Shown: positions 49-20,000, numbered from the stretch's first letter. The stretch: DNA of 20,000 nt from Neodothiora populina (GCF_041146345.1 NW_027191409.1:1859597-1879596), one strand, 5' to 3'. A program made the numbers and translations. Notes: generated by a model from the sequence alone, not told the origin.

Positions 49-1251
49 TCATGACCTCCCAACAGTCGGTCTCTGCTGCTGCTGCTACTGCAACGTCTTG
101 ATCTCCGACTTGAGATCTCCAAACATGACATCAATCTGCGCCAACAAGCTCCCACGGCCATCATTGGTAATGGAATGATCATTCATCTTACGCCTCATCG
201 CTTCCACCGCCCTCTCGATCTCCTGCGCGATGGCCACGCGAAGCATGCTCAGTGCTGTGGTCCGATTCCGCCCAGTGACATCAAAGTTAGCAACGCGAAC
301 ACAGGCAGCGGCGGCGGCGGAGTTGGAGTCCGGTGTCAGAGAGCGCAGCTGGCCAAGCACGCATTGTACGGTCAGGAAGGCAAGGAGGAAGAGGTTCTCG
401 ACCTGTTGTTCTTCACCCAGAGTGGAGCAGCAGTAGTGGCAGGTCTCGAGTGCTGTCCGTTGTTCGAGGGCTCGGGTCGCATTAGAAAAGATAGTATCGA
501 TGGGTTAGGGTTGTCGCTCGGACACTTCTGGCGTAGGTAATTCTAGCCGGGCGGATGAGGTGCTTCGACTGAGACTGACCAGCAGAGTTCGTAGACGCTG
601 CGCACATCCGCAGGTCAGGAGTCGAGTTTATTGCATGGTGTTCTTGTCGTTGCTATCGAGGCCGCCATTGTCATCTAGACCACCTTCCTGGTGGTCACTT
701 CCAGGAGGTGAGGAGCTTGTTGCCAATCGATGGGCCAAGAGTCCACGTGCTGATTATCAGAGTTGGATGGATGTACAGTGCCAGCAATCAAGTCGACACT
801 TGGTCCCGATAAACAAGTCAGCAAGTCCTCGTCCAAGAAACAGTTCCAGGCTGAGTCACCCGACGACAAATCATCCGTGGGCTCTGGTGGCAACGACACA
901 GACGTAATCTGTTGAATGTCGGGCGCCACAATTTCATGCTGCATCAGAGTCGTCCCCGAGTGGGTGGATGGGTTTTGCTGATTTCCTGGACCCGCGAGGT
1001 CGTCCAAGACGATTTGTCGGTCTGTAGAAACATGAATCGCCGGCGTCGGAGAGGGTACATTTCTCGCATGGCATCTCCCCGGAACGTTTTCTCTTGAGCT
1101 GGTGGCATAGGTCGCAAGCGTTGCGGAGGCCGATTTGTTCCTCGTAGCGTGATGTGGGTGGGGTATTTTTCCGACGCCGCTGCAGGTCAACCAAGGACTT
1201 CCTGGTGTTGGCAGTAGATGTTGTTTGACGATTTCTCAAGTGCGACGCCAT
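49..1251 (-). pseudogene. Zn2Cys6 (GAL4-type) cluster-specific transcription factor, AflR-like, disrupted
   Basis: ATG at 1251. The binuclear cluster reads ACDLCHQLKRKRSGEMPCEKCTLSDAGDSCFY followed by RLGRPRGS, with the third Cys replaced by Arg (CGT, 1084-1086). A frameshift at ~985-960 enters the 675..1190 frame (acidic/Pro linker), and another at ~690 returns. The C-terminal part (TCGCAQRL...PIDTIFSNATRALEQ...CHYCC...LFLLAFLTVQCVL...VRVANFDVTG) resembles AflR-type C-terminal regions. In-frame TAA codons lie at 628-630 and 505-507. A TAG at 85-87 sits inside a CAG run, and the next stop is at 49-51. Confidence 0.85.
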
Positions 1252-2875
1252 TCTGTTACATACGACGAGACAGTTGGGGCCAGTTGATGGCCCTCTTCGT
1301 TAACGCGAATGCAGACTCAACGGGCACGACTTTCGCATATAAATAGACGGCTATCAATGCTTGTGGCCCAACTATTTGCGTACTTCATCATTTTGGTCGA
1401 AGGAAGCGAGTGTCTTTCGACAAGCGTCACAAAGGGGAATTGAAGGATGGGTGGATTGACTGATTGATGGAGGGGTGGATTGATTGATTGACTGATGGAC
1501 GGATAGATGGATGAAATTATTGAATGGACTCAGTGGGTCTACCAACACAAGTGGCTTGCCTTGGGAAAGGAAGATCTACAGTATCTGGCAACTCCGTCCG
1601 AGAAATCGCGCAAAGCTGGGTGAGAAGGTTGTATGCCTGATGGGAGCTGTGATTCGAGCCGTGGCCAGTTGATGCAGGTGTCGTATGACCCTCAATCTAT
1701 CATGTACTCGCTTCTCGCATGATCTCGAGCAGTCTACACAAACTTCGTGTATTCGGAATTCAAGGTACTTCGTGACATCAAGGTGCTAGCATACGTTACC
1801 CAAGTACAAATGCATGAAGTCTGATAAGCATAACAAGAGCGAGACAAGGCAACAGACTGCACGATAGCAGCGATGCCTTGATATAACACGTGATAGCAAG
1901 AGTGTCTAATAGTGAAGATGGACTTTGATGGGCTACTGTAGGTCACGCAACACGTGACTTGACTATAACCGTCGAAATGACTCAGGTAGGTGCCATTTGC
2001 CCCAGACGTCGCTGTCAGAAAAGCTCGGTTGACATGATTAGTGGCTAGCTAGCAAAGCCAAGTGCTCGGCTCACGGTCCGGGTGAATCGGAAGACTCGCA
2101 ATACTGGGGGATGGAATCAATAAGGTTCGCGGCTGCGGCGCGGCTCACCCCCAAGTTCAATTCATGATATAGCACTACACGGTTGGCGTCCTCGATCGTT
2201 GCAGCTACCTTACTGTGTATGTGACAATAACAGGCGACGGATCTCCCGACGCTGCCACACCTCCCATCGAGTATAGATGAAGTAACGCTCTCTCGCTGCG
2301 GATCACTCTGTCATGCACTGCCTGTTCATTACAAGAGTGAGGACAGAGCACAGACTCCAAAACAGCGAGGTACTGTTACCTGAGCCTTAGTGGTCCCAAT
2401 TCGTAAGGTAAGATGGATGATACAAGCAATCATTCTCGCAACAAAAGTCGGTTGGCATCTCATGATCTGAGTCCCCTCGGAGATGCAACACAGCGAGTCG
2501 CTTGGTGCCACACTTTAGGCAGATCTTGGGGGGTCAAATCCGGAGGCATTTATGTGTAAAAAATTGCGAAATCCTCGATTCTATCATTGGCCATTTAAGT
2601 GAAGTAGTTGGATGTCGTGCCTCATATACCGACTTGACAGGTTGATGTAGCACAGGAGGGGACCGTAACTACCTTAAGGTATGCAAAGATGCCTTGGCCC
2701 CGGAAATGACATGTTTCAATCGGTTCCTTCCCTGTTTAGATACACTGCCTGCCTGTTCCTTCCTTCCTTGCTACAGCCTGCCTTATCTTTACGCGTAAGC
2801 CTCTGCGCTCTTGACACCCATAGATGAACTCTTCACTCCTGAACTTTTTCCCACCAATATTCTTCGATACTGGCC
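1252..2875. promoter_or_regulatory. Divergent intergenic/promoter region shared by the Zn2Cys6 TF and the PSST gene
   Basis: The two genes are head-to-head. An AT-rich TATA-like CATATAAATA lies at ~1337-1346, about 85 bp upstream of the TF ATG. A CT-rich tract at ~2745-2790 precedes the PSST ATG. I found no convincing ORF here. Confidence 0.5.
1445..1513 (+). repeat. Degenerate GATG/GATT tetranucleotide low-complexity tract
   Basis: ggatgggtggattgactgattgatggaggggtggattgattgattgactgatggacggatagatggatg, containing two copies of GGGTGGATTGA(C/T)TGATTGA. Confidence 0.7.
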
Positions 2876-3685
2876 ATGGCGACCGCACTATTCTCCCGGC
2901 GTAAGCATGCTTGTTGTTCTTTCAAAGAATCCATACCAGCTGACTGAAAATCTCAAGTCGGCGCTCGTCGTTTGCTGCCGTCTCTGGCCAGCAGGCCTCC
3001 TGCTTCATTGTCACAGTCTCTTTCCATCACACACGTGACCGACGCAAGACGTTATCAAAGTCAGCACGCGAAACCTGCGACTTTCACCCCGGCCTCTAAG
3101 AGTTCGAAGAGTCTCCTTCCCACGAGGACACCTCTACCCTCGCAGTCGCAGCCGGGCAGCGCAGCCGAATATGTTCTGTAAGACAATTAGAGACCTAATG
3201 TAAAGTCGACTTCAGGGGCTGACACGTGCTTAAGAACGACTTTAGATCAAGTCGTCAATTGGGCACGGCAAGGTTCAGCGTGGCCTCTCACTTTTGCTCT
3301 GGCTTGTTGTGGTATCGAGATGATGCATTGCTCCATGCCGCGATACGATCAAGACCGTCTGGGCATCATCTTTCGAGCCTCTCCGCGTCAGGCCGACATC
3401 ATCATCATTGCAGGCACCGTCACTAACAAAATGGCTCCTGCTGTCCGTCTGTGTTATGACCAGATGCCAGACCCCAAGTGGGTCATCAGTATGGGCAGCT
3501 GTGCCAACGGCGGTGGCTACTACCACTACAGTCACAGTGTTCTTCGTGCCGTCGACCGCATCCTGCCCGTCGACATTTACGTTCCCGGCTGCCCACCGAC
3601 CGCGGAGGCGCTGCTTTATGGCATCTTCCAAGTGCAGAAGAAGATGAGGCACGAAAAGGTCACTAGGATGTGGTATCGGAAGTGA
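2876..3685 (+). CDS. NDUFS7: Mitochondrial NADH:ubiquinone oxidoreductase (complex I) PSST / 20-kDa Fe-S subunit (NDUFS7/NuoB/NUKM family), divergent copy, intact, 231 aa
   Basis: Three exons: 2876-2900, 2958-3177 and 3235-3685. Introns are GTAAGC..GCTGAC..AAG and GTAAGA..GCTGAC..AAG. The spliced 696 nt is open. The N-terminus is Arg/Ser/Leu-rich, like a presequence ([21 protein letters not shown]). The core reads [31 protein letters not shown]...RASPRQAD...GTVTNKMAP...[12 protein letters not shown]...[12 protein letters not shown]...RMWYRK. All four N2-cluster cysteines (tandem CC, GSC, PGCPP) are present. Confidence 0.97.
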
Positions 3686-4056
3686 AGAAGAGCATCAGGT
3701 TCTAGAGATGAACTTTGGGTTTTCGACCGCCTCCTGGCACGGCGCCCATACCTTTGGGTAGTCTGAATCCGAGTCTCGGGTCTTGCTTGCTGTCTCTCAA
3801 GTGTAGTATCAAATCAAATACCACATTGTTTATCCTAACTCCAGGCCTTGGTTGCTGATTGAATACATGCGCGCATCACTCACACCGAAGGCTGACCCCA
3901 TATACCTCTCGCCTCTACTCGGCACTGCAGATTTGAATGCTCATCGTGTGACTTGGTCACGATCAAGGAATCTCGTCCAACATATACAGATAGATAATCT
4001 AGACGCTATAGACGACTCTTTTCGATGGGACACGCTCGAATCACTTCGTATTCCGA

Positions 4057-7000
4057 TCATGAAGATCTAGCAACTCCCTGCGCCAGCAATTTCGACCTAG
4101 TGGCGACACGCTCAGAAAAGACAGTCATAGGCACACCAGCCATGACATCGAAGACAGCAATGCGCGTCTGGCATTCTCGCAATGACTAGTTGGCCAGCTC
4201 GATGGCCGCCAAGGAATCGACTCCATAGCTATACAGGAAGCGATCAGTGTCGATCTCCTCTGACGATACTGCCAGCATCTTGGACATGCGCATTACGAGG
4301 GCTGATAGAATTGCGGAGGCCGCCTCGGACAGCTTCTGTGCCTTGGCTATGATGACGGACAGCGCTTCCCTCCCAGCACCATCCCTGCTCACGTTCGCTC
4401 CACTTTCGATCTTGTCAGCGCCCACGCGAGCCAAGATTCCGAAGCGGGCGTCCGTCTAGAAGTAATACGGGGGTTCTATGCCTGCCGCGATGGAGCCGGT
4501 CTTTTTCCCCAAACCTGTAGGTAGCTGGAACCTTGTTTGATCGGGCGTCATACAAAGTCTCATCAAACCGAGGAACTCGTGCTCACGGACGCCCCTTACC
4601 TTCTCCCATTCGGCCATGTCGCCCACAGCACCATCCTCAGCCAGACGCCCGACCTCCCGCATGAGACCAAGGTCGATGCTTACTGCATGCTTGCCGCGCG
4701 TGCGACGAGAATGAGCTAATGCGTCTTGGTATCCGCAGCCTGCGACGTAATTGGCCTGACCGCGATTGCCAAAAACACCGCAGAAAGAAGGGAGCATGAC
4801 GAGAAAGTCAGTAGTGTCGAGAAGGAGGTTATCCAAGTTCTTACTGCCCTGAACATTAGGACGTGTCGACTGGATCCAGTCAGTGTACGTCATGTTCTCG
4901 AATAAAACATCACGAAGAACCATGGCGCATTGGAAACAGCCACGGATGGGTCCGTTGAGTTTATGCTCCGCTCGAGCAATGGCATTCTTGAGAGAAGATG
5001 GCAGCGACACATCGGAAGGTATGGCCAGCGCTGCGACGCTCTTCTGACGCAGCTCGACGATGAGTTGCTGGGATTCCATTGACGAATCGCCGGAGCGATT
5101 AAGGAAACACAGCTTGCGTGTCCCGTCGGCAATGAGCATCTTGGCCAGGCAGCGTCCGAGCCCCCCAAACCTCCGACTAGGACGTAGACGCCTGTTTCGT
5201 CAAGCTTCATCGGTGGCGCAGGTCGACGCAGGATCGGCACGACATGCTCTGGTCTCCACTGGAACACGATCTTGCCGCTATGTCTGCTCGATTGCATGAG
5301 CCGCACAGCCTTTTCCATCTCCGGGATGGGATACGTGAGCAATGGAGTCGCTGGCTTGATGATACCTTGCGTGAGAAAAGGCTCGGTGCCTCGGACAATT
5401 TCCGCCATCAGACCCGATTTATCGTCCCAGATGGCTTTGAGATCGAAGAAAGAGAATGTAGCTCCCTGGCGAAACGGACGCATGTCAGACGGGTGTTGTC
5501 CATGATATCTCTCAGACCAAGTTCCACGAAATGACCACCTGCAGCGATGCATTCCCAGCCGCGTCGTATCGACTCCCCGGCGAGGGAATTGAGAATGATA
5601 TCCACGCCTCTTCCTTCCGTCATGCGCTTCACTCCCGGAGCGAAGTCCAGGTCCCGAGTGCTGAAGATATGGTCCTCAGCCACACCATAGATAACTTGTA
5701 CAAGCTTCCGCTTTACCGCGCTACCTACGGTAGTGAAGACCTCCAGTCCCAGATGTCTCGCGATCTGCAGAGCCACTTGTCCGACTCCGCCGGCACCGGC
5801 ATGAATCAGGAAACTTTGGCCTTTTTGAGCCCTAGCCATGTAGACGATACCGTACCAGGCTGTGTAGCTCGTCACTGGTATGCTGGCTCCTTCCTCAAAG
5901 GACATGGTGCATGGCAGCTCGAAGGCATAATTAGCGTTGCCTATGAATAGGATGCTGTGAGCGCCGTTCCCGAGCAGAGCTAGACGCTCTCCCCTTTGAA
6001 TGTGCTTAACGGCACTGCTGATGCGGGTCACGGTTCCTGCCGCTTTTAGACCCAGGGTTTTCGATGGTAGCAAGCCCATAATGGTCATAACTTCGCGAAA
6101 GTCGAGACCTGGAGCTGCAACTGCAATGTCGATCTCATCTGCACCTAGAGGTGCAGCTGCATGGGTCGTAGGTTCGAAGCGAAGTGAGTCGATAAAACCT
6201 GGCTTTCCAACAGCCAGTTCGATAGCCGTTGAAGCGGCGCTGATGGGCAGAAATTCAACGATCGTGGCTTCGTTCGGGTTGGTATTGAGTCGCAACGCTC
6301 CATTGAGGACATTGTCCTCAAGAGCACGACAAATATAGGGAACACCATTGCGAATTTGGAATTCATGATCTGGATGAGGAGTATCGGTCATACCTTCGGT
6401 ATGCTTGCCGCAGAAGATGTCGACGAAAATGGCTGCTGATCGCTCAGGCTGGCTGTCTTTGCTGGATTTATCAATTAGGATGGATAATGGTTGGAGAGCG
6501 AGAAGCTCGTTGTGCAGAGTGCGCAAAGCTCCGATCATCATAGTCGCCGTGGGAGTGCCACCAATCGCCATATCATCTGCTCCTGTCAGCCACGTCAAGT
6601 GAGAGGCTTGGAGCACAATCTGCTTGATTCGGAAAAAGTCTTCTTCGCTGAGCTCATCGAGGAGGGTGTTGTCAAACTCGATAAGAGATATGCAGTGCCT
6701 GTCTTGGATGGCATTGGCTGAGATTTGGCCCCATCCGAGCACATTTGCTGTACAACCTTGTGCATCCAGAGCTTGTACCAGAAAGAACAAAAATTGCTTC
6801 AATCTTAGGCCCTTGCTCTGTGGGCTCAGGACGACGACCTCAGAGGTACTGGAGCGTCTGTTGGTCTGAAATCTGTTCGCTCTCTGAACGTCGAAGATCT
6901 TGACAGCATATTGCCCGTCTTCGCATCGCAGTCTCTCAGTGAGGCGCGAGTTCGCCGAGCAAATTGAGTCAAGCTTGTTGGCAGTCTGTACGGGATCGAT

Positions 7001-10000
7001 GGGACAAACAAACCGAAGTGATTCTCCGTCCAGCGACTCAATCAGTCTGTCGAGCTCGCCCTTAGAATCCTCATCATGGGAAAGGTGAGCCGCCAACAGG
7101 AGGTTGGTTTCGGACTCCTTTACTATCAACAACTGCTCGATGTTGACAATCTCAAAATTCAGCTTCTGCTCACTGAGCTTGTCCAGTGTTTTCAGGACGA
7201 CTTCCTTATCGTTGTCGGAGCAGGCACATTGGTACATTGGTACTTGGTGGTTGCGAACACGCGAGGAGTAAGGTCCAGCTCAGGCAGCATGATACGGTCC
7301 GAGTTTGCCACTTCGCTGATCGTCATGCCTGGATACTCATGGTGCAACAGATCGATGAAATTGAACAATTTAGCCAGCGCAGATCCCGCAGTCTGATTCG
7401 TCTTGCCGGACTCTGCTTCAATTGCGGCCATCGTCTCTCGCGCGTCCAGCAGGCTCACGGCAGGCTTCCATTCAAGTTTCCCGCACACGCTCTTCGGACC
7501 CGCAGCTGAGGCACTATCTTCCACCTCACCAGCTACGCTCGTGTAGCACAGACCCGTGGACCTAATGACGGGGCTGCTTGTGCTTGGAGTCTGCATTACG
7601 ATGTCGGCTTTGAAGTTTTTACCACCATACTCCTGGGCATCGCAGAAGCCCGTGATTTGTTGACCGGCCCACCACGGCACGTCCATGCTGATGATTACGT
7701 CGTCAACGAACTTTGGGGTCCATGCTTTCTTTACGTCCATTGCTGCAAATGCCATGTCTATAACAGCATCGAGGAGGGCAGGATGTACGACGTGTGGTCT
7801 ACCATCGTCCACGGTGCATGAGGGATCATTGAGGCCTACGTCATGGATGTTGACTGAACAGCTACTCTGGCCACCTCCTGGTTGATCTCGTCTTGCGACA
7901 GCACTAATATTCGTATAGGATGGTCCGTAAGTGAGTCTAAGAGATGCGAGGTGGATGTGGAACTCGGTAGCATTGAGCTTGATAGCGCAGAGTCCTCGAG
8001 CTTCGCTGGCGCAGTGCTGCACTGCTACCTTATCGGCTGCAGTCTCTGCGCTTCTATGCTCGCTATCGTAGACGACGACGATAAGACCAAGACAGTTGCG
8101 CTCGAATCTCTGGCCGTCTGGTGAGCTGGAAACGACGAATTCAGTCCAAGTGCTGGTCGTCGCCAAGGTGCCTGTCTGGTGTGGCCTCAACACGATTGAG
8201 AACTCCACGTCCTCGTCATCCTCAATAATCATGGGCGAGACGAATTGAACATGGCGGAGGTGAAAGCCACTTACTTCTCGATCCCCACTATAGATCTGCA
8301 TGACCGCCTCAATGGCCATGGTAATGAATCCGGCAGCGTGGTATATAGTATTCCCTTGGATCTTATGGTCGCCCAACCAAGGCTCATCTCTCATACGCAT
8401 GTGTCCACACCAAGCGTGCTCGCTGGCCATAGGTGACGGAATAGGCGATCCCAACGGACTTAGGTGCGGGAATTGGCGCAGGCGTTGTTCCCTAGCCCAC
8501 CCGGTCTCGGCCCAATACCTTTGGCTGGTTCCATGGGTAGGACGGGAGACCAATCAGAACCCTAGGCTTACGAGATAACAATCGAACTTCCATGGCAATT
8601 GCGTTCACCTGCTCCGCCAAACAGGAGCAGACTGTGCACGCAGGTCTCCCGCCAAGTTAAGAGCAGTCTTGACGCCATCCTCGAAACGCAGGAGAGCGGA
8701 CTGATAGGGTACATCAGTAACACCAATTTCTTTCAAGCTCTGTATCGACGGGCCTTGGAGAGCTGAGTGCGGGCCCACTTCGACCAGGATATCAACTTCG
8801 TTTGAGTGTTCTCGCTCAGCTGCGTTGTCGCGGCTTGGTGGTCGAACGACATTTTGCACTGCGCCAGCGAATCTGACAGGCGAAACAAGATTGCGAACCC
8901 AATGCTCCGGGCCCAAATCGCTTGGCTGGACCTCTGTCCCTGTACAACTCGAATATATGACGCATCCGCTGCAGCTTGGCTGAGTCTGCACATCACTAAT
9001 AGCCTCTAGGTAGTCGGAAGCGACCTCCTTCATGTGGTGCGAATGGTAAGCTGTGTCAACCTGCAATTTCCTCGCGAAGATGCCTTCTTAGCTGATCGCT
9101 TGAGCGAGCTTGTCGATTCCAGTGATATCACCTGATAGAGTCACGCTTGAAGGCGAATTGATGCAAGGATTGTGACTTGCCCTGGAGCTATGAGTTTGAC
9201 GAAATCGTACGCCTTCTCCGGAGATGTTCCTATCACCATCATCGTGCCATGAGTGTTTGATGATAACTCTCTGAGACTGGTCGACAAGATGCCACGATAG
9301 AAAGCTATCTTCCAGGCATCCTTCTTCGTCAAGGCTCCGAGGCAATATGCGGCGGCGATCTCACCACTTGAATGACCCGTCACCGCGGCGGGCTCAATAC
9401 CCACTGTTTGAGGAGATCTACCAAGGCAACTTGCAAGACTGTACAGAGCGTCTGGCCGAACTCGGCGATTCCCAGCTTCGATTGGCCCTTAGGCTTCCGC
9501 AACTCCTCTTCAGCGGACCATTCGCAGCCCAATCCCGACACTAGGTATTCGTCGGCGGCACGTATGCTCGCAGCAAAGGTCGGATATACCATGAGCTCTA
9601 TACCCATACCTCCCCATTGAGCACCCTGACCAGTGAATACAAAGCCAACCCTTGGAGTGCGGGCCGCCGAGAGACATTGTGGCGAGGGTGTATCCTTGTT
9701 CTGCAGAGCCTGCACAAGGCTTGTCATGGATGATGCTATCACGAAGGTCCTCCATTGGTGCAATGACCGTCGTGCGTTCAAAGTGTATGCCAGGTCGACG
9801 ATGTACTCTGTTCCATCGAAGTGCTCACTGCTGATGGTCTTTTTCTGGATCCATTCGGCCAAGCTCTGCTTGACTCGGTCTATGCCATGTTCAACCTGAG
9901 CGGAGAGAGAGAACACCAGGGGCAACGTAGATCTACCATCAACAGCGACGATATCTGTCCCATCGCTTGAGCAGCCGTTTGTATGTGTGGCATTCTGCAA

Positions 10001-11575
10001 GCTCTGTTGCTGCCCATGGCGTGTACTATGGACTCCGTTCAGCTTGCGGGCCTCCAAATATGAAAGCGCATCATCCATCAGGACGTGGGCATTGGTCCCC
10101 GCAAAGCCGAAACCATTAACACTGATACGGCGGAAGCCTTTCTGTTCTGGGAATGGTACCAGTGTAGTGGGTATAGACAACTTCCACTCGTCTAGCGGGA
10201 TCTCTGGTGGAACATTCCTGGCCGTATTCGTACCGGGTATCAGACCGTGCTCTAGGACGAGAACAGCTTCGACCATTGCCGCAAGACCTGCACAAGCCTC
10301 AAGATGTCCGATCTAGAAAGACCCAAGTCAGCATGCTATTCTTTTATGTCGTCTGATGCTTTCGAGACAGAAGTTGGGCGCACATTTGACTTGACCGAAC
10401 CGATCAAGAGCTTTTCGGTCCCGAATTTGCTGGTTGCGATTGTGGTTGAAAGGGCTTTGGTTTCCTCTTGGTCACCTGCTTTAGTTCCGGTGCTTTGAAT
10501 GCAGAAGTCAACGTCAGCTTTGTACCACTGGGACGACGGAGACGGTGCCCACGTGAGCCTCGACATATCCGGTATGCTCAAAGCCTAAGCCGGCCTGATG
10601 ATAAGCATCGCGCACCAAGTCAGCTTGCGCTTTCCAATCTGGCAGAGTCAAACCTTTGGTATGTCCGTCTTGATTACTGGAAGTTCCTCTTATGACCGCT
10701 CTGATGGGGTCTCCGTCCCGGACTGCATCTTCTACTCGTTTGATGACTAATGCTCCAATGCCTTCTCCTCTTCCATACCCATCACCGGATACGTCAAAAG
10801 TTTTGCTTCTCCCGTCCGGTGATAGCAATGATGCATTACTCAGAACTTTGAACATGTCAGGCGAAAGCATTAGGTTGTACCGCCGACGATAGCCATGTCG
10901 CTTTCTCTTGCCCGAATGCTCTGACAGGCGGTGTGCAATGCTACAAGACTACTTGAGCAAGCTGTGTCGAGAGTCAAACAAGGTCCATGGAGGTCCCACA
11001 GCCAAGAAAGTCTACCTGCCATGGTGGCGGCGTGGTTGCCTGCCAATGTGTATGTTGGCATGTTATCAGCATCTTTACGCAGGATGTTGTAGTAGTCGTC
11101 GGTCAGAACACCGATGAAAACGCCCGTCCGCGAGCCTGCGACATGTTTCAAATGACGTCCTGTTTTAGGAAGAAAGCAGACTTAGCCTTGCTAGTGTTAC
11201 TGCGTTTATGTTCAGCAGGGCTCCAGAACGCGTCGGCGTTGAATCGATCTTTTGAAATTTCGCTCCATGCGCCTGAAACTCGTCGTTATTACCATATCTA
11301 CCATCTATATTGAAGCTAGCTGGCTGGACTCGTGGAGATACAACACGGATGGAATTGAAGGAGGGGATGACATACACTCGCCACTGGCTATTGAGTGCCA
11401 GAACTTGTCAATGTTACCGCCATTGCCAGGAAATCGACAGGACATGCCAATGATGGCAATATCACCCGTGTAGAAGTTGTCTTTCCCATTGGAACCATCG
11501 TTATGCCTACCAGTAAACGTTGAGTCTGCCGAAAGTCCGCTCTTGTCCGTTTTTGCTGGATGAGCTTCCGAGATG
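4057..11575 (-). pseudogene. Highly reducing iterative type I PKS (KS-AT-DH-pseudoMT-ER-KR-ACP), disrupted
   Basis: KS: DIAIIGMSCRFPG (~11460), intron 11375-11273, [123 protein letters not shown]. The terminal stop is at 4057-4059. Frame breaks occur at ~11152, ~10873, ~9395, ~9170, ~8610-8530, ~7220, ~5490 and ~5160. In-frame stops occur at 9088, 4456 and 4186. I could not identify the start codon, so the 5' boundary is approximate. Confidence 0.95.
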
Positions 11576-12201
11576 CTCGAATGTCGTTCAAAGATACGTG
11601 GGAGGAACTGAAAGCCTTGCTTGTACCAAGAGATAGTGATGCAAGATAGAATTCCGTAACTTGGTACTATACTTTGGTCCCACGAGCTCGCAGTCTTCCC
11701 GACTGTGCACTGCGCTCTTCGGGAACGAACAACGTTGACCTCGGGATATTGATCGCGGAACATTCTCAGATAAGTGGATCGCTACATCTGTTCCGACGAC
11801 CTGAGTAACCTGTCCCTTGTACACAAATAGGCCGACTCATTGACCTCACGCTTATGTACGTTGATCAGTCTCAAACAGGGAGAGGGTGTGACTCACGTCG
11901 AACGGGAAGAATTTGCAAAAGTGCCGCTGTATGGCTCTACACTTCGGAGGCAGACTTGCTAGCGGCAATTATCGCGCCCTTTTCTTATGGGTGATTACAG
12001 CCCTACCGTAGTATCATCATCCTTTCTCGTGTGTTTGCGTGTTGAGCGAGACCCATGCCAATCGCTGCTGCGGAAAACGATAGCGGCGGAGTAGTCTCAG
12101 CGCTATACTCATCTCGTACTTCTCAAGAGCAGCCACTTTGACTTCTCGAACCAACCGTCTCCGGCAAAGAACCAAGTCGCGTCGCAGCTTCACAATCTAA
12201 C
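11576..12201. promoter_or_regulatory. Short (~0.6 kb) divergent promoter region between the HR-PKS and the NR-PKS
   Basis: The two PKS genes are head-to-head, a layout typical of co-regulated collaborating PKS pairs. The region contains several CGG/CCG triplets but no site I can define. Confidence 0.5.
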
Positions 12202-13545
12202 ATGGCAAACGCCCAAACTCACTTGCTAGTCTTCGGCGACACAGCCACTGATAGATTGTTCATGATCCAGGCGCTGGTTTGCCATTTCAAGTCCTCGCCA
12301 GCCGCGCGTATATTTCTCGAGCAGGCTACAGATAGGTTGAATATTGAGTTCTCACGACTGAGACCGGATGAGCGAGACTGGACGTCCTCGCAATCGCTTT
12401 TAGCGCTGGCTGAGGAAGATGCCAACCCGAGCGTACCTACCAGTGCTTTCATCCCTACACTATGAGCCATAGTTGGTCGTCTTGGTGAGGTTGTTGTGTG
12501 AGTGACTCTTATTTGACTGACAGTGCAAATTTTTGAAAGAAAACTGATTACATAAACATTTTCACCGGCGCACTGAACAAGACCCATCAATTCTGGGATC
12601 CAGTGCAAACCCGACGCATATCCTGGCCTTTTGTTCGGGGCAATTAGCGATCGTCCCGCTTATGGGCGCTCAAGATACAGCGGAGATACTCCCGATCGCT
12701 CTAGAAACTCTGTCCATCTGCGTCCGATACATATCTTTGACGAAGCTGCTGCGTACGAACCTTCTAGCGCCTCATGATACTGGAGCATGTTTCGTTACAT
12801 ATCTTGGCATAAGACCAGAGCGTATGCAGGTCATCCTGGATGAATATCACAAATCGGAGAATGTGTTCCAGTTGCAGAAGATCTCAATTGGTGTTGTTTC
12901 TGAAGGTTGGGTCACTCTGGTAGGGACGCCATCATCTTTCTCTCGCCTTGTGGCATCGTCAACAGAGATCAATAATGCCCATATCCCTACCGACGTGGGT
13001 GGCCCATCGCATACCCAGTATATGCCGATTCCGGATGTTAAAGATATGGTTGGAAGCTCAGCCATTTTAGATCGGACGATCGATTGGTCTAAGTTTATCA
13101 TGTCGGAAGTGTTGCTACATGTCGATACACAACTCTGCGGGACCATTTAGCGAAGTCATACTCAACATCTTAGAGCGCCCTTTACGAATTGACAAAGCCA
13201 CCAAAACATGTATGGATAGTCTTCGGGACCTAACGTCCAAATCTGGAAAGATCTGCCACCTCAAGGTCCACGAGATGGGTAAAAGCCCCCATATGTCTTT
13301 CATTTAGAGAGCTTTGAGCGCTGGCCGCACCAAGTTTACCAAGTTTTGCCGACTCACCCACTTCTGCGATCCGTGCGTTATCGGACCTGGTGGCTGTAGT
13401 GGGTATGGGTGGTCGCTTCCCCGACAATGAGACTACAGATGGTTTCTGGGGAGATCTCATGGCAGGAACATGCCATATCAAAAAGATCCCCAAGTCTCGT
13501 TTCGATGTTGACAGATCTTATCTTAGTGGAGACTTCGATGCGCTC
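12202..13545 (+). pseudogene. Non-reducing PKS remnant: SAT domain plus the first ~45 aa of KS, truncated
   Basis: The SAT start is MANAQTHLLVFGD... The SAT active-site-like AFCSG (GxCxG) lies at 12626-12640. Also present are WVTLVGTPS and GGPSH, and the KS start LVAVVGMGGRFPDNETTDGFWGDLMAG...KIPKSRFDVD. Lesions: TGA at 12463-12465; an intron from GTGAGT at 12498 whose expected acceptor reads CG (12566-12567); frameshifts at ~13110 and ~13330-13370; TAG at 13305-13307. No AT, PT, ACP or TE follows. Confidence 0.9.
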
Positions 13546-13700
13546 CACAACGAGACCGGCCTGCAATTTGATACCGTGTTGCGCAGTAGGTAGGGATGAC
13601 GAAGTATAAGATTACTGAAGTTCTTACGGACGTAAGTCAGGTTTCCTATATTGGCTGCCCCTCTGCAGTCTTGTCAGTATCTCTGTTCCTCTTATAGCCG

Positions 13701-15220
13701 TAGCGCTGGATAGCTATCGATCTTACCTCTACCTTCATTGGTAATGGGCCTGGCTCCGACGAAATCCACCAGTTCCTTGCCGATGTTGTTCAGCTCGGTC
13801 TGGATTTCAAATCTCGGGACAAAATCAAGTCGCGGCATTCTGACGAACCCTCCAATGTCTCGTTTGACTACATGCCTCGTTTGGGTCTCGACACTACTCA
13901 GATGTTAAATGGATTCAGAGAGCTCGCACTTTCAAGCGCAAACTGGAGCTCCCCAAATTTTATGGGGTTCCCAGATGCTGGTAATGCAGCCCCTGCTGTC
14001 GCTGCCGCGCTCTTAATCCTTTTACTGAACCAGAACCTTGCCAATCAAGATATTCGTTCACCTCGCGCAACATTCGTGGAGATGGAAGTGGTACATTGGT
14101 TGCGGCATCAGATCGGATTTACAGTCCCGCCAACATATGCTTCATCAAACCAGATTGGCGGTATCCTTACACTTGGCGGCTGCTTGTCCAACACAATCGC
14201 GATCATGGCAGCTCGTGAACATGTATTTCCTGGCTCTTCACAGAAAAGACTCCCTGCCTTACCAGAGCGAATACGCATCCTTGTCCCTGATATAATCGAA
14301 CATTATTCCATCCGTTCGGCAATGGCATGGCTGAGTCTTGGAGAGCAGAATGTAGTGCGCGTTCCTGTCGACCGACCCTTCAAGATGCGATTATCTGAAT
14401 TGTCTTGCATCATTGATCGAGAAAGAGCCCACGGAAATACGATACTAGCTTGCGTCGGCTATGCTGGCGATTCTAGGTCCATGCGAATAGACGATCTTGA
14501 CGGCATAGCATCCTTGTTGGAGTCAAAAGATGTTTGGTTTCACGTGGATGCCTGCCACGGGAGTCAGCTCGTCTTCTCCCGAACACATCGAGAAAAGCTC
14601 AAGGGTATGGAGAGAGCCGACTCTGTCACGATTGACCCACATAAGGTCCTATGGATCCCTAACACCTGCTCATGTGCTTTGTTTAAACATTCACAATCAT
14701 TGTCCAACATCTTAACGAACTCGGATTTGATTCTCAAGATCAGATGGTCTCTAGGTCAGATCACCCCATTCATTGGATCTAAGGCATTTGATGCACTCAA
14801 GCTCTGGTCCACAATTTCGGCACAGAAAGAATCGAAAGGCTCATCGACAGTCGCTTGAGCCTAATTAGCGACATACAGCAAGCAATTACATGAAGACCAG
14901 ACCTTCTTCTTCTGAATAAAACAGACATCAGCTCCTGCATGTTCGTCTTCATACCAAGCGCATGCCAGAGGAAGAAAGGTGTTGCTGGGGTTGTATTTAC
15001 ATCCGCAGATTGCGAAAAATTCAACGAGGTGAATCAGGGGATCAAAAGTCGAATCCTTAGTGAGGGTGAGCATTACCTGCATGGCTTCGAGCTGAAGTAA
15101 TGCTCCAGTGACTTATTCAGTGACGGGCAGAGAGTCTATGTTCTTCAAGTAATGGACGGTAACCCGCTCACGTTAATCAAGCATGTGGATGCACTAATGA
15201 CAAGCTTGTTACTTATGGTC
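13701..15220 (+). pseudogene. PLP-dependent amino-acid decarboxylase domain (GAD/DDC/diaminobutyrate decarboxylase family)
   Basis: Motifs: SPNFMGFPDAGN, GGILTLGGCLSN, HYSIRSAMAWLSLG, WFHVDACHG (14535-14561), DSVTIDPHK (PLP-binding Lys at 14643-14645) and GSKAFDALKLW. There is a frameshift at ~14815, TGA at 14891-14893 and TAA at 15098-15100. Confidence 0.9.
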
Positions 15221-16632
15221 GGAAGAGTTTCGCGCTGCGGCAGTTCCAAATCCTTGGGCAGCCTGGTCGAGACTTTCACGACTTAGCCGTCTGCCGGAGT
15301 CTCCAACATTGCAGTGAAGATTTTCTCCGCGGATATGAATATGAGGCCATCATCTATGGCTCTAGCTCCTTTCCAGGCAATATGGTCATGTCGGATATGA
15401 ACCTCATGGTTTTTGTAACTGACGACTTCGGCCTGTGCTCCGAAAAGTCGCTCCGCTTTGCCCGATCATTCGAGGACAACATAGTCTCTCACCAAATAGT
15501 TGTCGAGAACGAGGTTCCGCTGGAAAAGAAACTGATCATCCCAATGGGAATGGCGATGAAAGCCTCGACGGGTGTCGGACTGAACCTCTCAAGTGGCAGA
15601 ATTGTCTCCATTTCTAAGACTACGGAGTTCTTGAGATCGAACACGATGCTGCACCGACTGATCTTCAACGCCTTGACAGTACCACACGTTCACTTTTGTG
15701 GAAAGTCCTCCATGGTAGGACGAATCAAGGAGCGAGCATCTCGTGTCCTCGTGATGTTGATTGAGGCGATCGGAACGAATGACAGTCCGATTGACCAATC
15801 ACGAAGATGTCCGATCCCTGGCTCCACAGTCAACTCTGTTTTACGGCAATTTAACCCTGAACTATTTGCACAATCGGCTATCAGTGATGGGTCGCGCACT
15901 GGGGAGGAATATTTAGGATACAAGGATAGACCCGAAGTCGTGCAATATCTGAAGGACATCTTGATTACAGCAAAGCAAAGTCTTGTTCAACAAGAAGTCA
16001 GCACTCTTGGATACCTCTGTAAGCCTAGTGATATAGCTCGGAGGCCTCTCGAATGCGTTGTACTTTTGAATGGATTTCCGGGAGTTGATAAATTATCAAT
16101 CGGCCGGGCTCTCCCTGACATCTTTGGTGCCGAGCATGCGCGTTTCCTCGACAATCATGCTCTTATCGACCCAGTACAGGCTATCTCCCCCGGGAGAGGC
16201 ACCAATCATAAAGATCTCCGTCGTATGTTCCGGGCAGTAGCTTTCAGTGCGTTGGAAGGTCTCGAAGACCCGGGCACAGCCATTATCCTGACTAGCTGTC
16301 TAAGTCCGGATCAAGAAGACTGTGACGTTTTTGATGAGCATGTGCAAATCGCCTATCGCCGCCGGATGCCGATGTACCTTGTCAACATTAGGTGCGATAA
16401 AGAAGAACATGAAAAACGCTTCCACTCGGTCGAGCGGTCTCAGGGTACTAATACCAAGCTTCAAAGTCAGGTTATTCTGGACACCATGCTTCAGCAGCAC
16501 CCTTTGATTCAGCCTACCGAGACCAATGCCACATCGATCTCGGATATCGATCTGTGCGTTATGGAATTCAACTCTACGGGAAGATCCGTTGCTAGTAGCG
16601 CTGCCGAGATCTACCAGATGATCGTGAAGTAA
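15200..16632 (+). CDS. Open frame encoding a nucleotidyltransferase-like domain and a C-terminal P-loop kinase-like domain (3' part of the disrupted fusion gene)
   Basis: IIYGSSSFPGNMVMSDMNLMVFV (15349-15417) matches the hG[GS]x9-13DhDh NTase signature, with N in place of the second Asp. VVLLNGFPGVDKLSIG (~16057-16104) matches Walker A GxxGxGK[ST] with G>D. This is followed by FLDNHALIDPV and IILTSCL...RMPMYLVNIRCD...KRF...R, which is typical of small-molecule kinase folds. Confidence 0.65.
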
Positions 16633-18502: not shown

Positions 18503-19402
18503 CTACCAGGCAAGCTCATCACCCTGGTAATCAATCAGTCTTCCACCATGAGTTTCTTTTGTAGCCCCCTCGATCAATGGGACCATGTTGCCACATGATT
18601 CTTCGACCGTCACAGGAGCCTGCTCCATACCAAAAGCACGTGCACCAGTGTTTCCGAGATCAGTCTGGCACCAACCAGGGCTGATGACAAACGCAGTGAG
18701 CTTTTCTTCTTCGTGGTTCATCTTCTTAGTGAGCCAATGTACAGCGATCTTCGACGTCGCGTAAGCCGCGTTTGTGATGGGAAGTTGGTTCTATAGAGTT
18801 CCACGAGGTTAGCCGATGGCTGCTACTAACCGGGGATTAAATGATATCAGAGAAAAGCTTCGAAAGGACTCACCTGGATACACCCAGCGGTCGAGCCGAT
18901 AGTGATCCATTTCGGATCCGCTGATTTGAGCAGAAGAGGCAACGTAGCCTGGAACAGCCACACGGTGCCATAAACGTTAGGCGCCATGTGTCCCTCCAAA
19001 TCTTCAATCTTCAGCTCCGACACCTTTGGCCAAATATATGACACGCCTGCATTAGCGATCACGATATCAAGGTGTTTGATCTCTTCATTTGCGACAAGCT
19101 TATTGACGGCGTCCTGGGCAGAAGTCGCGACTGAAGCATCGGTTTTGACGATTATCAATTTACTACCGACACCTTTGGGCAGGTCGAAGAGAGCTTTCGA
19201 AGTAGGGTGCGTAGGGTCGCGGTTGGCAGCAATCACGGTATAGTTCGGCTTCGCAAGGTACAGCTCGATAAATCCCTTTCCTGTGATCCTAATGTTAGAT
19301 ACAAAACAAAGAAAGCGTGATATCGTGGGGAAGTCTGTCAAATGCCACGCACGTACCTAGACCTCTGTTTGCACCACTAACTAGAACGATCGTTGGAGCC
19401 AT
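18503..19402 (-). CDS. Short-chain dehydrogenase/reductase, norsolorinic acid ketoreductase (Nor-1/AflD)-like, intact, 246 aa
   Basis: Three exons: 19402-19357, 19280-18874 and 18790-18503. Introns are GTACGT..CTAAC..CAG and GTGAGT..CTAAC..TAG. The spliced 741 nt is open. Motifs: VLVSGANRGLGKG (Rossmann), VIANAG, catalytic YATSK, and ISPGWCQTDLG. Confidence 0.95.
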
Positions 19403-19913: not shown

Positions 19914-20000
19914 GGGTTAGGGTTAGGGTTAGGGTTAGGGTTAGGGTTAGGGTTAGGGTTAGGGTTAGGGTTAGGGTTAGGGTTAGGGTTAGGGTTAGGT
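19914..20000 (+). repeat. Telomere, (TTAGGG)n, right chromosome end
   Basis: GGG, then 13 perfect TTAGGG units from 19917, then a final TTAGGT at the window end. The G-rich strand runs 5'->3' toward the end, as expected for a true terminus. Confidence 0.97.

Follow-up and report, generated by a model that had tools for sequence, protein, structure and literature searches.

Why does a gene for the PSST subunit of complex I (NDUFS7/NuoB) lie beside a pair of polyketide synthase (PKS) genes close to a chromosome end? The question is posed by a 20,000-nucleotide (nt) stretch of Neodothiora populina DNA, read on one strand from 5' to 3' (hereafter the window; all coordinates are positions in this whole stretch). 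Its PSST gene, on the plus strand at 2876..3685, has a Zn2Cys6 regulator gene on one side and a highly reducing PKS (HR-PKS) on the other, the latter paired with a non-reducing PKS (NR-PKS). A first-pass annotation of the window had proposed that the gene is an extra target copy, kept to protect the producer from a complex I inhibitor made by the ancestral cluster. Our phylogenetic comparisons indicate that the window copy is one member of an old and widespread family of second PSST copies, and was not made for this cluster. Because that paralog family is far older and wider than the cluster, the window copy is not special to it.

The PSST gene and the family it belongs to

The gene had been described as intact, and our reading agrees. 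Three exons (2876-2900, 2958-3177 and 3235-3685) encode 231 amino acids (aa), with sound splice sites, start and stop. Both introns are 57 nt long, with GTAAG donors, CTGAC branch sites and AG acceptors, and the open reading frame (ORF) closes with TGA. The translated product matched Pfam PF01058 (Oxidored_q6; E 4.9e-28) over profile positions 1-127 of 128, scoring 97.9 bits (cut-off 27), and aligned over its full length with the PSST chains of complex I structures (E from 2.9e-86 for 7zm7_K to 5.7e-85). Its first 80 residues are basic and rich in Ser, Leu and Ala, and they correspond in the alignment to the presequence region of the nearest relatives. The ligands of cluster N2, C85 and C86 (tandem CC), C150 and C180 (Yarrowia numbering, as for all positions below), are all present. 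Unchanged as well are W77, M90, M91, I106, F107 and R108, six residues named as quinone or inhibitor contacts in parts of a review (PMC9503403). The 149-aa core of the protein was 93% identical to that of Viridothelium virens (P0121), and the full-length protein was 85-86% identical to those of V. virens and Trypethelium eluteriae (P0504).

Relatives were sampled as the best 120 matches in the length class of the query, the matches in a 'longer' class, and 109 new proteins recovered with a canonical Dothideomycete query. The best 120 length-class matches were 81-93% identical to the window core (V. virens 93%, Exserohilum turcicum 90%, Westerdykella ornata 89%), and canonical proteins appeared only at the end of this list and in the 'longer' class. 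In a FastTree phylogeny of 345 core sequences, the window copy was placed in Group 2, a clade with 121 members and a support of 0.91; for this paralog clade we coin the name PSST2. None of the 109 new proteins from the canonical query fell in Group 2 (0/109), and the other 179 ascomycete sequences had very short branches and grouped roughly by class. The separation was also seen in an IQ-TREE fast search with SH-aLRT support, for which 60 sequences were hand-picked for taxon coverage and same-strain pairs. All Group 2 sequences (30/30) formed one clade (SH-aLRT 94), all canonical Pezizomycotina sequences (21/21) formed another (89.3), and the two were sisters (69.6) after the yeasts had branched off. 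In neither tree (FastTree 0.91, SH-aLRT 94) was the window copy grouped with the canonical, housekeeping PSST clade of Pezizomycotina.

The two types frequently share their hosts. Group 2 spans at least 49 named genera in our sample, and 16 genera are represented in both Group 2 and the canonical group. Both types occur in the same strains of Plenodomus tracheiphilus (IPT5), Karstenula rhodostoma (CBS 690.94) and Arachnomyces sp. (PD_36), and in the same species in Zasmidium cellare, Parastagonospora nodorum, Aspergillus heteromorphus, A. floccosus, Pyricularia oryzae and Aureobasidium pullulans. T. eluteriae likewise has a canonical protein in addition to its Group 2 protein, which belongs to the same 90% cluster as that of V. 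virens. Purified complex I of Chaetomium thermophilum (7zm7_K) contains the canonical-type PSST, and related Chaetomiaceae also have Group 2 proteins. The closest sampled orthologs of the window copy, from two Trypetheliaceae species, two named Pleosporales genera and three unnamed sequences, make up one subclade. Taken together, the tree topology and this distribution suggest that the PSST2 duplication arose somewhere near the base of Pezizomycotina and that four classes have retained PSST2 alongside the canonical gene. A further divergent PSST copy was seen in Fusarium decemcellulare (P0074, a fused model of 1021 aa), which sits on a long branch with the canonical set and is not PSST2. This model is fused to an MFS transporter and a Fungal_trans_2 regulator, and it has Phe at contact position 106 (GTFF vs GIIF).

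We also asked whether N. populina itself has a canonical copy, by comparing public sequencing runs that contain window:2500-12000 with a canonical fungal PSST locus from a metagenome (L002) at 80% likeness. All sampled 31-letter words of window:2500-12000 (100%) are present in run X1, whose contigs total 29 million letters and which is probably the source run; X2 is from the same sample, and each of the two runs yielded one contig over L002:9997-10248. The X1 contig is 21,201 nt long, is separate from the window, and differs from L002 at 40 of the 252 nt (9997-10248). Once the 30 differences listed are taken into account, this region encodes the canonical motif, and its DNA shares 69% identity with the window gene. 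The letters beyond it in the X1 contig keep the PSST frame and are absent from the window. This canonical-type exon on another contig of the probable source run supports the view that the window PSST is an extra copy, an assignment to one organism that rests on the shared run. The first-pass annotation had asked for a second, canonical PSST and allowed that the window gene might be the only one; the separate contig argues against a sole copy. In a third run, from a different organism (X3), 7% of the sampled words of window:2500-12000 were present.

What distinguishes PSST2 and what it may do

Compared with canonical PSST (PSST/NDUFS7/NUKM; Yarrowia 6gcs_K and Chaetomium thermophilum 7zm7_K), PSST2 has the same Pfam family, length and C-terminus, and it shares the four N2 cysteines and the six contact residues. 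Within Group 2, all four cysteines are kept in 121/121 sequences, and the contacts are nearly as constant (W77 in 118 of the 121, M90 in 121, M91 in 120, I106 in 119, F107 in 120 and R108 in 121). The differences are that the window PSST2 falls in a separate clade, is present in addition to a canonical-type copy, and departs from canonical PSST in one motif stretch (which in canonical proteins ends in (L/V)S(T/A)) and at about 20 other positions. When scored against a canonical set that is at least 90% uniform, the family-wide PSST2 changes were M79L, T95M, S114A, L123V, V134C, R142K, C167V and M188L. The subclade of the window copy (41 sequences) adds G82A, A87G, L131V and V171L, with Ile at position 88 in 95%.

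Several of these changes lie close to functional residues. Positions 79-95 of PSST2 flank the tandem cysteines and M90/M91, and the window copy differs from canonical PSST at positions neighbouring the contacts, namely 79, 82, 87, 88, 93, 95 and 114. The extra copy proposed by the first-pass annotation is thus supported; the gene is divergent, and its changes concentrate in the N-terminal stretch with the tandem-Cys N2 ligands and most of the PSST quinone-chamber residues (as given in parts of PMC4758237). The family has also evolved about four times faster than its canonical counterpart, with a node-to-tip distance of 0.270 for Group 2 vs. 0.069 for the canonical group, and a mean pairwise identity of 86% vs. 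95%.

The surroundings of PSST2 in other genomes give some indication of how the gene may be controlled. Our metagenome context scan covered the best 80 of 586 relatives, among which the 8 matches taken as closest were translated; only one locus among these (L001, 7.3 kb) was of Group 2 type. Its PSST2, of another subgroup, is oriented divergently to a Zn2Cys6/Fungal_trans regulator, and next comes a 546-aa protein that matched no Pfam family. In Diplodia corticola (P0015), a fused gene model joins a homologous Zn2Cys6/Fungal_trans regulator to PSST2 in the same orientation; the L001 regulator (2-2391) and that of P0015 are homologous at E 8e-34. On the strength of this homology, regulator and PSST2 may form a conserved regulator-target pair in one branch of the family. 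Other fused models join PSST2 to an MFS transporter (Aspergillus venezuelensis) or to 370 extra residues without a family (Monosporascus). The regulator of the L001/Diplodia type was not found in the window at E 1e-3, and a threshold of E 10 gave only chance-level matches (E 1.5 or worse). When the fused models P0015, P0056, P0049, P0074, P0051 and P0028 were compared with the window, the PSST parts alone matched.

We read PSST2 as an alternative N2/quinone-site subunit of complex I, possibly an inhibitor-tolerant one, and give this reading, which draws on sequence features, a probability of roughly 40%. The protein would enter mitochondria by way of its N-terminal presequence, its four conserved cysteines would bind N2, and it would replace canonical PSST in a fraction of complex I. 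The resulting enzyme would have an altered second shell around N2 and around the site of the quinone head group (79, 82, 87, 88, 93, 95 and 114), and the most probable benefit would be tolerance of natural quinone-site inhibitors, like that of the alternative SDHC of Zymoseptoria. We infer both the assembly of PSST2 into complex I and any change in its inhibitor sensitivity. Counted in favour of the reading is that PSST2 elsewhere appears to have its own regulator, the homologous Zn2Cys6/Fungal_trans gene found beside it at two loci. A more specific version is doubtful in our view: that PSST2 is an inducible replacement subunit giving complex I tolerance of natural, and possibly agricultural, quinone-site inhibitors, and that the window gene was once recruited beside the dual-PKS cluster.

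The closest parallel is found in complex II. According to parts of a study of Zymoseptoria tritici (PMC6941823), the alternative SDHC (ZtSDHC3) assembles into complex II and confers resistance via one residue of the Qp site; it is a presence/absence polymorphism, for which natural inhibitors were proposed as the selective force and metabolic tuning was also discussed. Like PSST2, ZtSDHC3 duplicates a quinone-site subunit, coexists with the housekeeping gene and is not part of a working cluster. They differ in that ZtSDHC3 acts in complex II and has its assembly and resistance demonstrated, whereas PSST2 belongs to complex I and is known from sequence alone.

Several observations weigh against an alternative, inhibitor-tolerant subunit. 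The contact residues listed in the review are unaltered in the window copy, so that inhibitor sensitivity could be changed only indirectly. The family-wide diagnostic residues are conserved throughout the clade, as would be expected of a fixed physiological role no less than of inhibitor tolerance. The canonical contig of X1 could in principle come from another fungus in the sample, and the other PSST2 contexts observed total four (L001, P0015, P0056 and P0049), three of which are inferred from fused gene models. Moreover, the window copy has four private changes (V119I, Y161H, G166A and L194V) at columns that are at least 97% invariant among the 345 sequences, a count tied for 6th highest of the 345 and top among the fungal sequences (median 0). 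Such changes could reflect relaxed constraint or a lineage-specific shift, and at near-invariant columns they may mean that the window copy is losing function.

The stability of the diagnostic residues also counts in favour of another explanation, in which PSST2 is a condition-specific isoform that tunes the N2 potential, quinone kinetics or the production of reactive oxygen species (e.g., under hypoxia, at different temperatures or in development) and has no link with inhibitors. Its ancient and broad retention would suit such a role, as would the regulator neighbour conserved at two distant loci. Duplicated subunits of oxidative phosphorylation are, furthermore, common in fungi: parts of PMC2803194 report that 76% of these families are duplicated, in a text that does not name PSST. 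For SDHC paralogs, PMC6941823 considers two roles, and metabolic adaptation is one of them. No observation speaks directly against such an isoform. Nonetheless, the four-fold faster and lineage-variable evolution of PSST2, together with its MFS and regulator neighbours, would suit a role in defence at least as well, and we regard an isoform of this kind as rather unlikely.

Decay of the neighbouring cluster and the question of self-resistance

The layout of the locus is as the first-pass annotation had given it, with measured distances close to its estimates. The PSST stop lies 371 nt from the stop codon of the HR-PKS (4057-4059), where about 370 bp had been stated, and 16,229 bp from the telomere repeat, which had been placed within 17 kb. 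This repeat, (GGGTTA)n / TTAGGG on the plus strand at 19914-19999, has a period of 6 and 14.3 copies with a 100% match (Tandem Repeats Finder and direct reading). The two PKS genes are indeed head-to-head, with 438 bp between the HR-PKS ATG and the NR-PKS start (12202), though both are broken. PSST is divergent from the Zn2Cys6 regulator, as claimed, with an intergenic space of 1,624 bp between the ATG codons (1251 for the regulator), and the regulator is probably broken too.

The HR-PKS (about 4057..11763, minus strand) was recognized by Pfam on 11 ORF pieces and by tblastn of 6 homologs against the window, of which 3 were inspected and 2 had the alignments around the stops read. The domains KS, AT, DH, ER, KR and ACP are present in it, and the single open frame is lost to at least 3 nonsense codons and 6 frameshifts. 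In-frame stops interrupt conserved blocks at 9088-9090 (AT), 4456-4458 (after KR) and 4186-4188 (ACP, at a Trp position). Frameshifts at ~10873-10876, 9389-9401, 9165-9168, 7216-7234, 5465-5483 and 5160-5169 fall where the homolog is ungapped and leave no room for an intron, while further frame changes at 10497-10553 and 10312-10381 could reflect introns, of 55 and 68 nt. The N-terminal region of the KS (11182-11307) has six stops plus deletions, and the AT-DH linker (8554-8607) has two stops. Repeat-induced point mutation (RIP) is not favoured as the cause of this decay: indels are the majority of the lesions, and the GC content of the PKS region is 0.49-0.56. X1 reproduces all sampled 31-letter words of 2500-12000, a range that spans the HR-PKS lesions; this would argue against consensus errors if X1 were an independent assembly, and X1 may be the source itself.

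The other two cluster genes have fared no better. In the NR-PKS (12202..13593, plus strand), Pfam recognized SAT on 12142-12465 and 12548-13150, and ketoacyl-synt at profile positions 4-48 only, on 13318-13593. The gene is thus reduced from the SAT-KS-AT-PT-ACP(-TE) architecture to SAT and the first ~45 residues of the KS. Among the PKS homologs used, only P0358 matched the region with its KS N-terminus (13390-13506). A PLP-dependent decarboxylase ORF begins ~110 nt past the cut KS and marks the breakpoint that removed the rest of the NR-PKS. The regulator, of a small, cluster-specific AflR/CcsR-like type (ATG 1251 to ~86, minus strand; Pfam and ORF reading), has a weak Zn_clus match (20.6 bits, E 4.9e-4, vs. 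a cut-off of 21) and an Arg in place of the third Cys of its CX2CX6C motif. Its ORF lies in three frames (934-1299, 675-1235 and 85-504); all frames are stopped at ~600-675, and ordinary introns could not join them. As a lead only, its C-terminal piece was nearest to Atlas clusters with AflR and CcsR_C (score 0.87-0.90). The biosynthetic cluster is therefore dead, its HR-PKS a pseudogene and its NR-PKS a stub, and its Zn2Cys6 regulator is probably defective.

This decay raises the possibility that the PSST copy of the window is itself a functionless relic, whose ORF has stayed intact by chance amid decayed subtelomeric neighbours. All three neighbouring cluster genes are broken, and within its 7.7 kb the HR-PKS has at least 9 clear-cut lesions, 3 of them nonsense codons and 6 frameshifts, while the N-terminal KS region and the AT-DH linker hold others. 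We estimate from this density that a neutral coding sequence of 0.7 kb would escape a disabling hit ~40% of the time, so that intactness alone is weak evidence of selection. The four private substitutions point the same way, in particular Y161H and G166A, whose columns are invariant in Groups 1, 2a and 2b, and the sister sequence from V. virens is absent from the 25 highest private-change counts. Against a relic speak the intact splice sites, start and stop, N2 ligands and contact residues, and a Pfam score of 97.9 bits that is ordinary for the family (92.8-98.2 bits in other members). Three of the four private changes are conservative, and the terminal branch of the window copy (0.063) lies within the range of other members of its subclade (0.019-0.104). 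We therefore consider it unlikely that the gene is a relic.

Could PSST2 nonetheless have served this cluster while it was alive? In the scenario of the first-pass annotation, the ancestral HR-PKS/NR-PKS cluster made a quinone-site inhibitor of complex I, and a PSST copy that protected the producer now survives as a relic. In its favour, the gene is a second copy with changes adjoining N2 and the quinone residues, and it is separated by 371 bp from the HR-PKS 3' end and by 1.6 kb from a regulator of cluster type. Target copies in fungal clusters have precedent, and the two precedents cited earlier are sound: parts of PMC13515044 describe a target copy of ATP synthase beta in the aurovertin and citreoviridin clusters, and the entries seen in the FunARTS positive-control table give succinate dehydrogenase as the target for atpenin B and harzianopyridone. 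In these fungal clusters, too, an extra copy of a respiratory-chain target lies beside polyketide genes. Here, by comparison, the genes for biosynthesis have become pseudogenes, the copy comes from an ancient family that extends beyond one cluster type, and the subunit is PSST. By analogy with ATP synthase beta and succinate dehydrogenase, it is possible that PSST2 genes could be recruited into clusters.

Bacteria offer a second comparison. In the available parts of PMC4758237, producers of complex I inhibitors (piericidin-producing Streptomyces), as well as Myxococcales, show natural-resistance substitutions in NuoD/NuoB. The shared idea is that producers or exposed organisms alter quinone-chamber residues; the bacterial changes are in a single housekeeping operon, whereas PSST2 is a second nuclear paralog.

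The wider comparisons tell against a resistance role for this cluster. The PSST2 family is far older and wider than the cluster, and the closest orthologs of the window copy form a subclade consistent with vertical descent. No PKS was found beside PSST2 in the four other contexts (L001, P0015, P0056 and P0049), where its neighbours include a regulator (2 loci) and an MFS transporter (1 locus). PSST2 and the nearest named HR-PKS relatives are on different contigs in both species checked (2/2), A. venezuelensis (291 kb vs. 33 kb) and Pyricularia grisea (8.69 Mb vs. 4.35 Mb); these relatives are ~40% identical and not clear orthologs, which makes the unlinkage weak evidence. Altogether, no co-occurrence of PSST2 with these PKSs was seen in a thin sample (4 contexts and 2 species, without a genome-wide synteny search). 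Nor was an intact homologous cluster found: among 1.84 billion representatives, the best relative of the HR-PKS (P0350) was 44% identical over a 623-aa query piece.

To these points are added the unaltered quinone and inhibitor contact residues and a cluster that is itself dead. Because the family is old, the contacts are unchanged and the other contexts are without a PKS, what is left to self-resistance is adjacency to pseudogenes. Of the original idea, the extra, divergent copy beside the PKS genes stands, and nothing shows a resistance role for this cluster. We consider such a role improbable, and favour reading the position of PSST2 beside the PKS pair as a feature of a decaying subtelomeric region, not as evidence of a dedicated producer-resistance pair.

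Prior reports, implications and further features of the window

Our literature search found no report of a second fungal PSST or of a PSST/NDUFS7 resistance copy in a cluster, and the PSST2 second-copy family of filamentous fungi is apparently undescribed. The main texts of PMC6517689 and PMC12616698 make no mention of NADH, ubiquinone or complex I, although their supplements might list such targets. In the main text of PMC10320164 the sole match to 'complex I' is 'complex II' in a reference title, and the main text of PMC13515044 gives no complex I target; the supplements of both might list one, and the figures of PMC2803194 could contain a record of this kind. One preprint (10.1101/2024.12.16.628617) concerns a PSST gene, and the part of it available does not state whether this is canonical PSST or PSST2.

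If PSST2 does enter complex I, filamentous fungi would have two versions of the quinone-reducing module. The interpretation of fungal complex I structures and of inhibitor data would be affected, and so would the risk assessment for standing resistance to complex I fungicides, as happened with the alternative SDHC for succinate dehydrogenase inhibitors. For resistance-guided genome mining, a PSST gene beside a cluster is not a marker of a complex I inhibitor unless the paralog type has been checked. The practical value of this particular locus is low, because its cluster can no longer yield a product.

The HR-PKS may represent a PKS lineage that is otherwise unsampled or extinct. One 321-aa fragment of it had a 67% identical match, and it was otherwise without a close relative in the 1.84 billion representatives.

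Between the cut NR-PKS and the telomere, Pfam identified three further features. The PLP-dependent decarboxylase ORF (Pyridoxal_deC, 5.8e-39) occupies 13704-14858 on the plus strand. It is followed on the same strand by a 489-aa open frame (15163-16632) with a weak match to AAA_18 (P-loop; E 0.0018, under the cut-off). On the minus strand, a short-chain dehydrogenase is present as two ORF pieces (18503-19356), with its upstream end ~560 bp from the telomere repeat. At the other end of the window, the intergenic space between the regulator and PSST2 contains an imperfect tandem array at 1439-1512, which can be read as ~9 copies of the unit ATTGATGG or as ~3 copies of 24-nt units.

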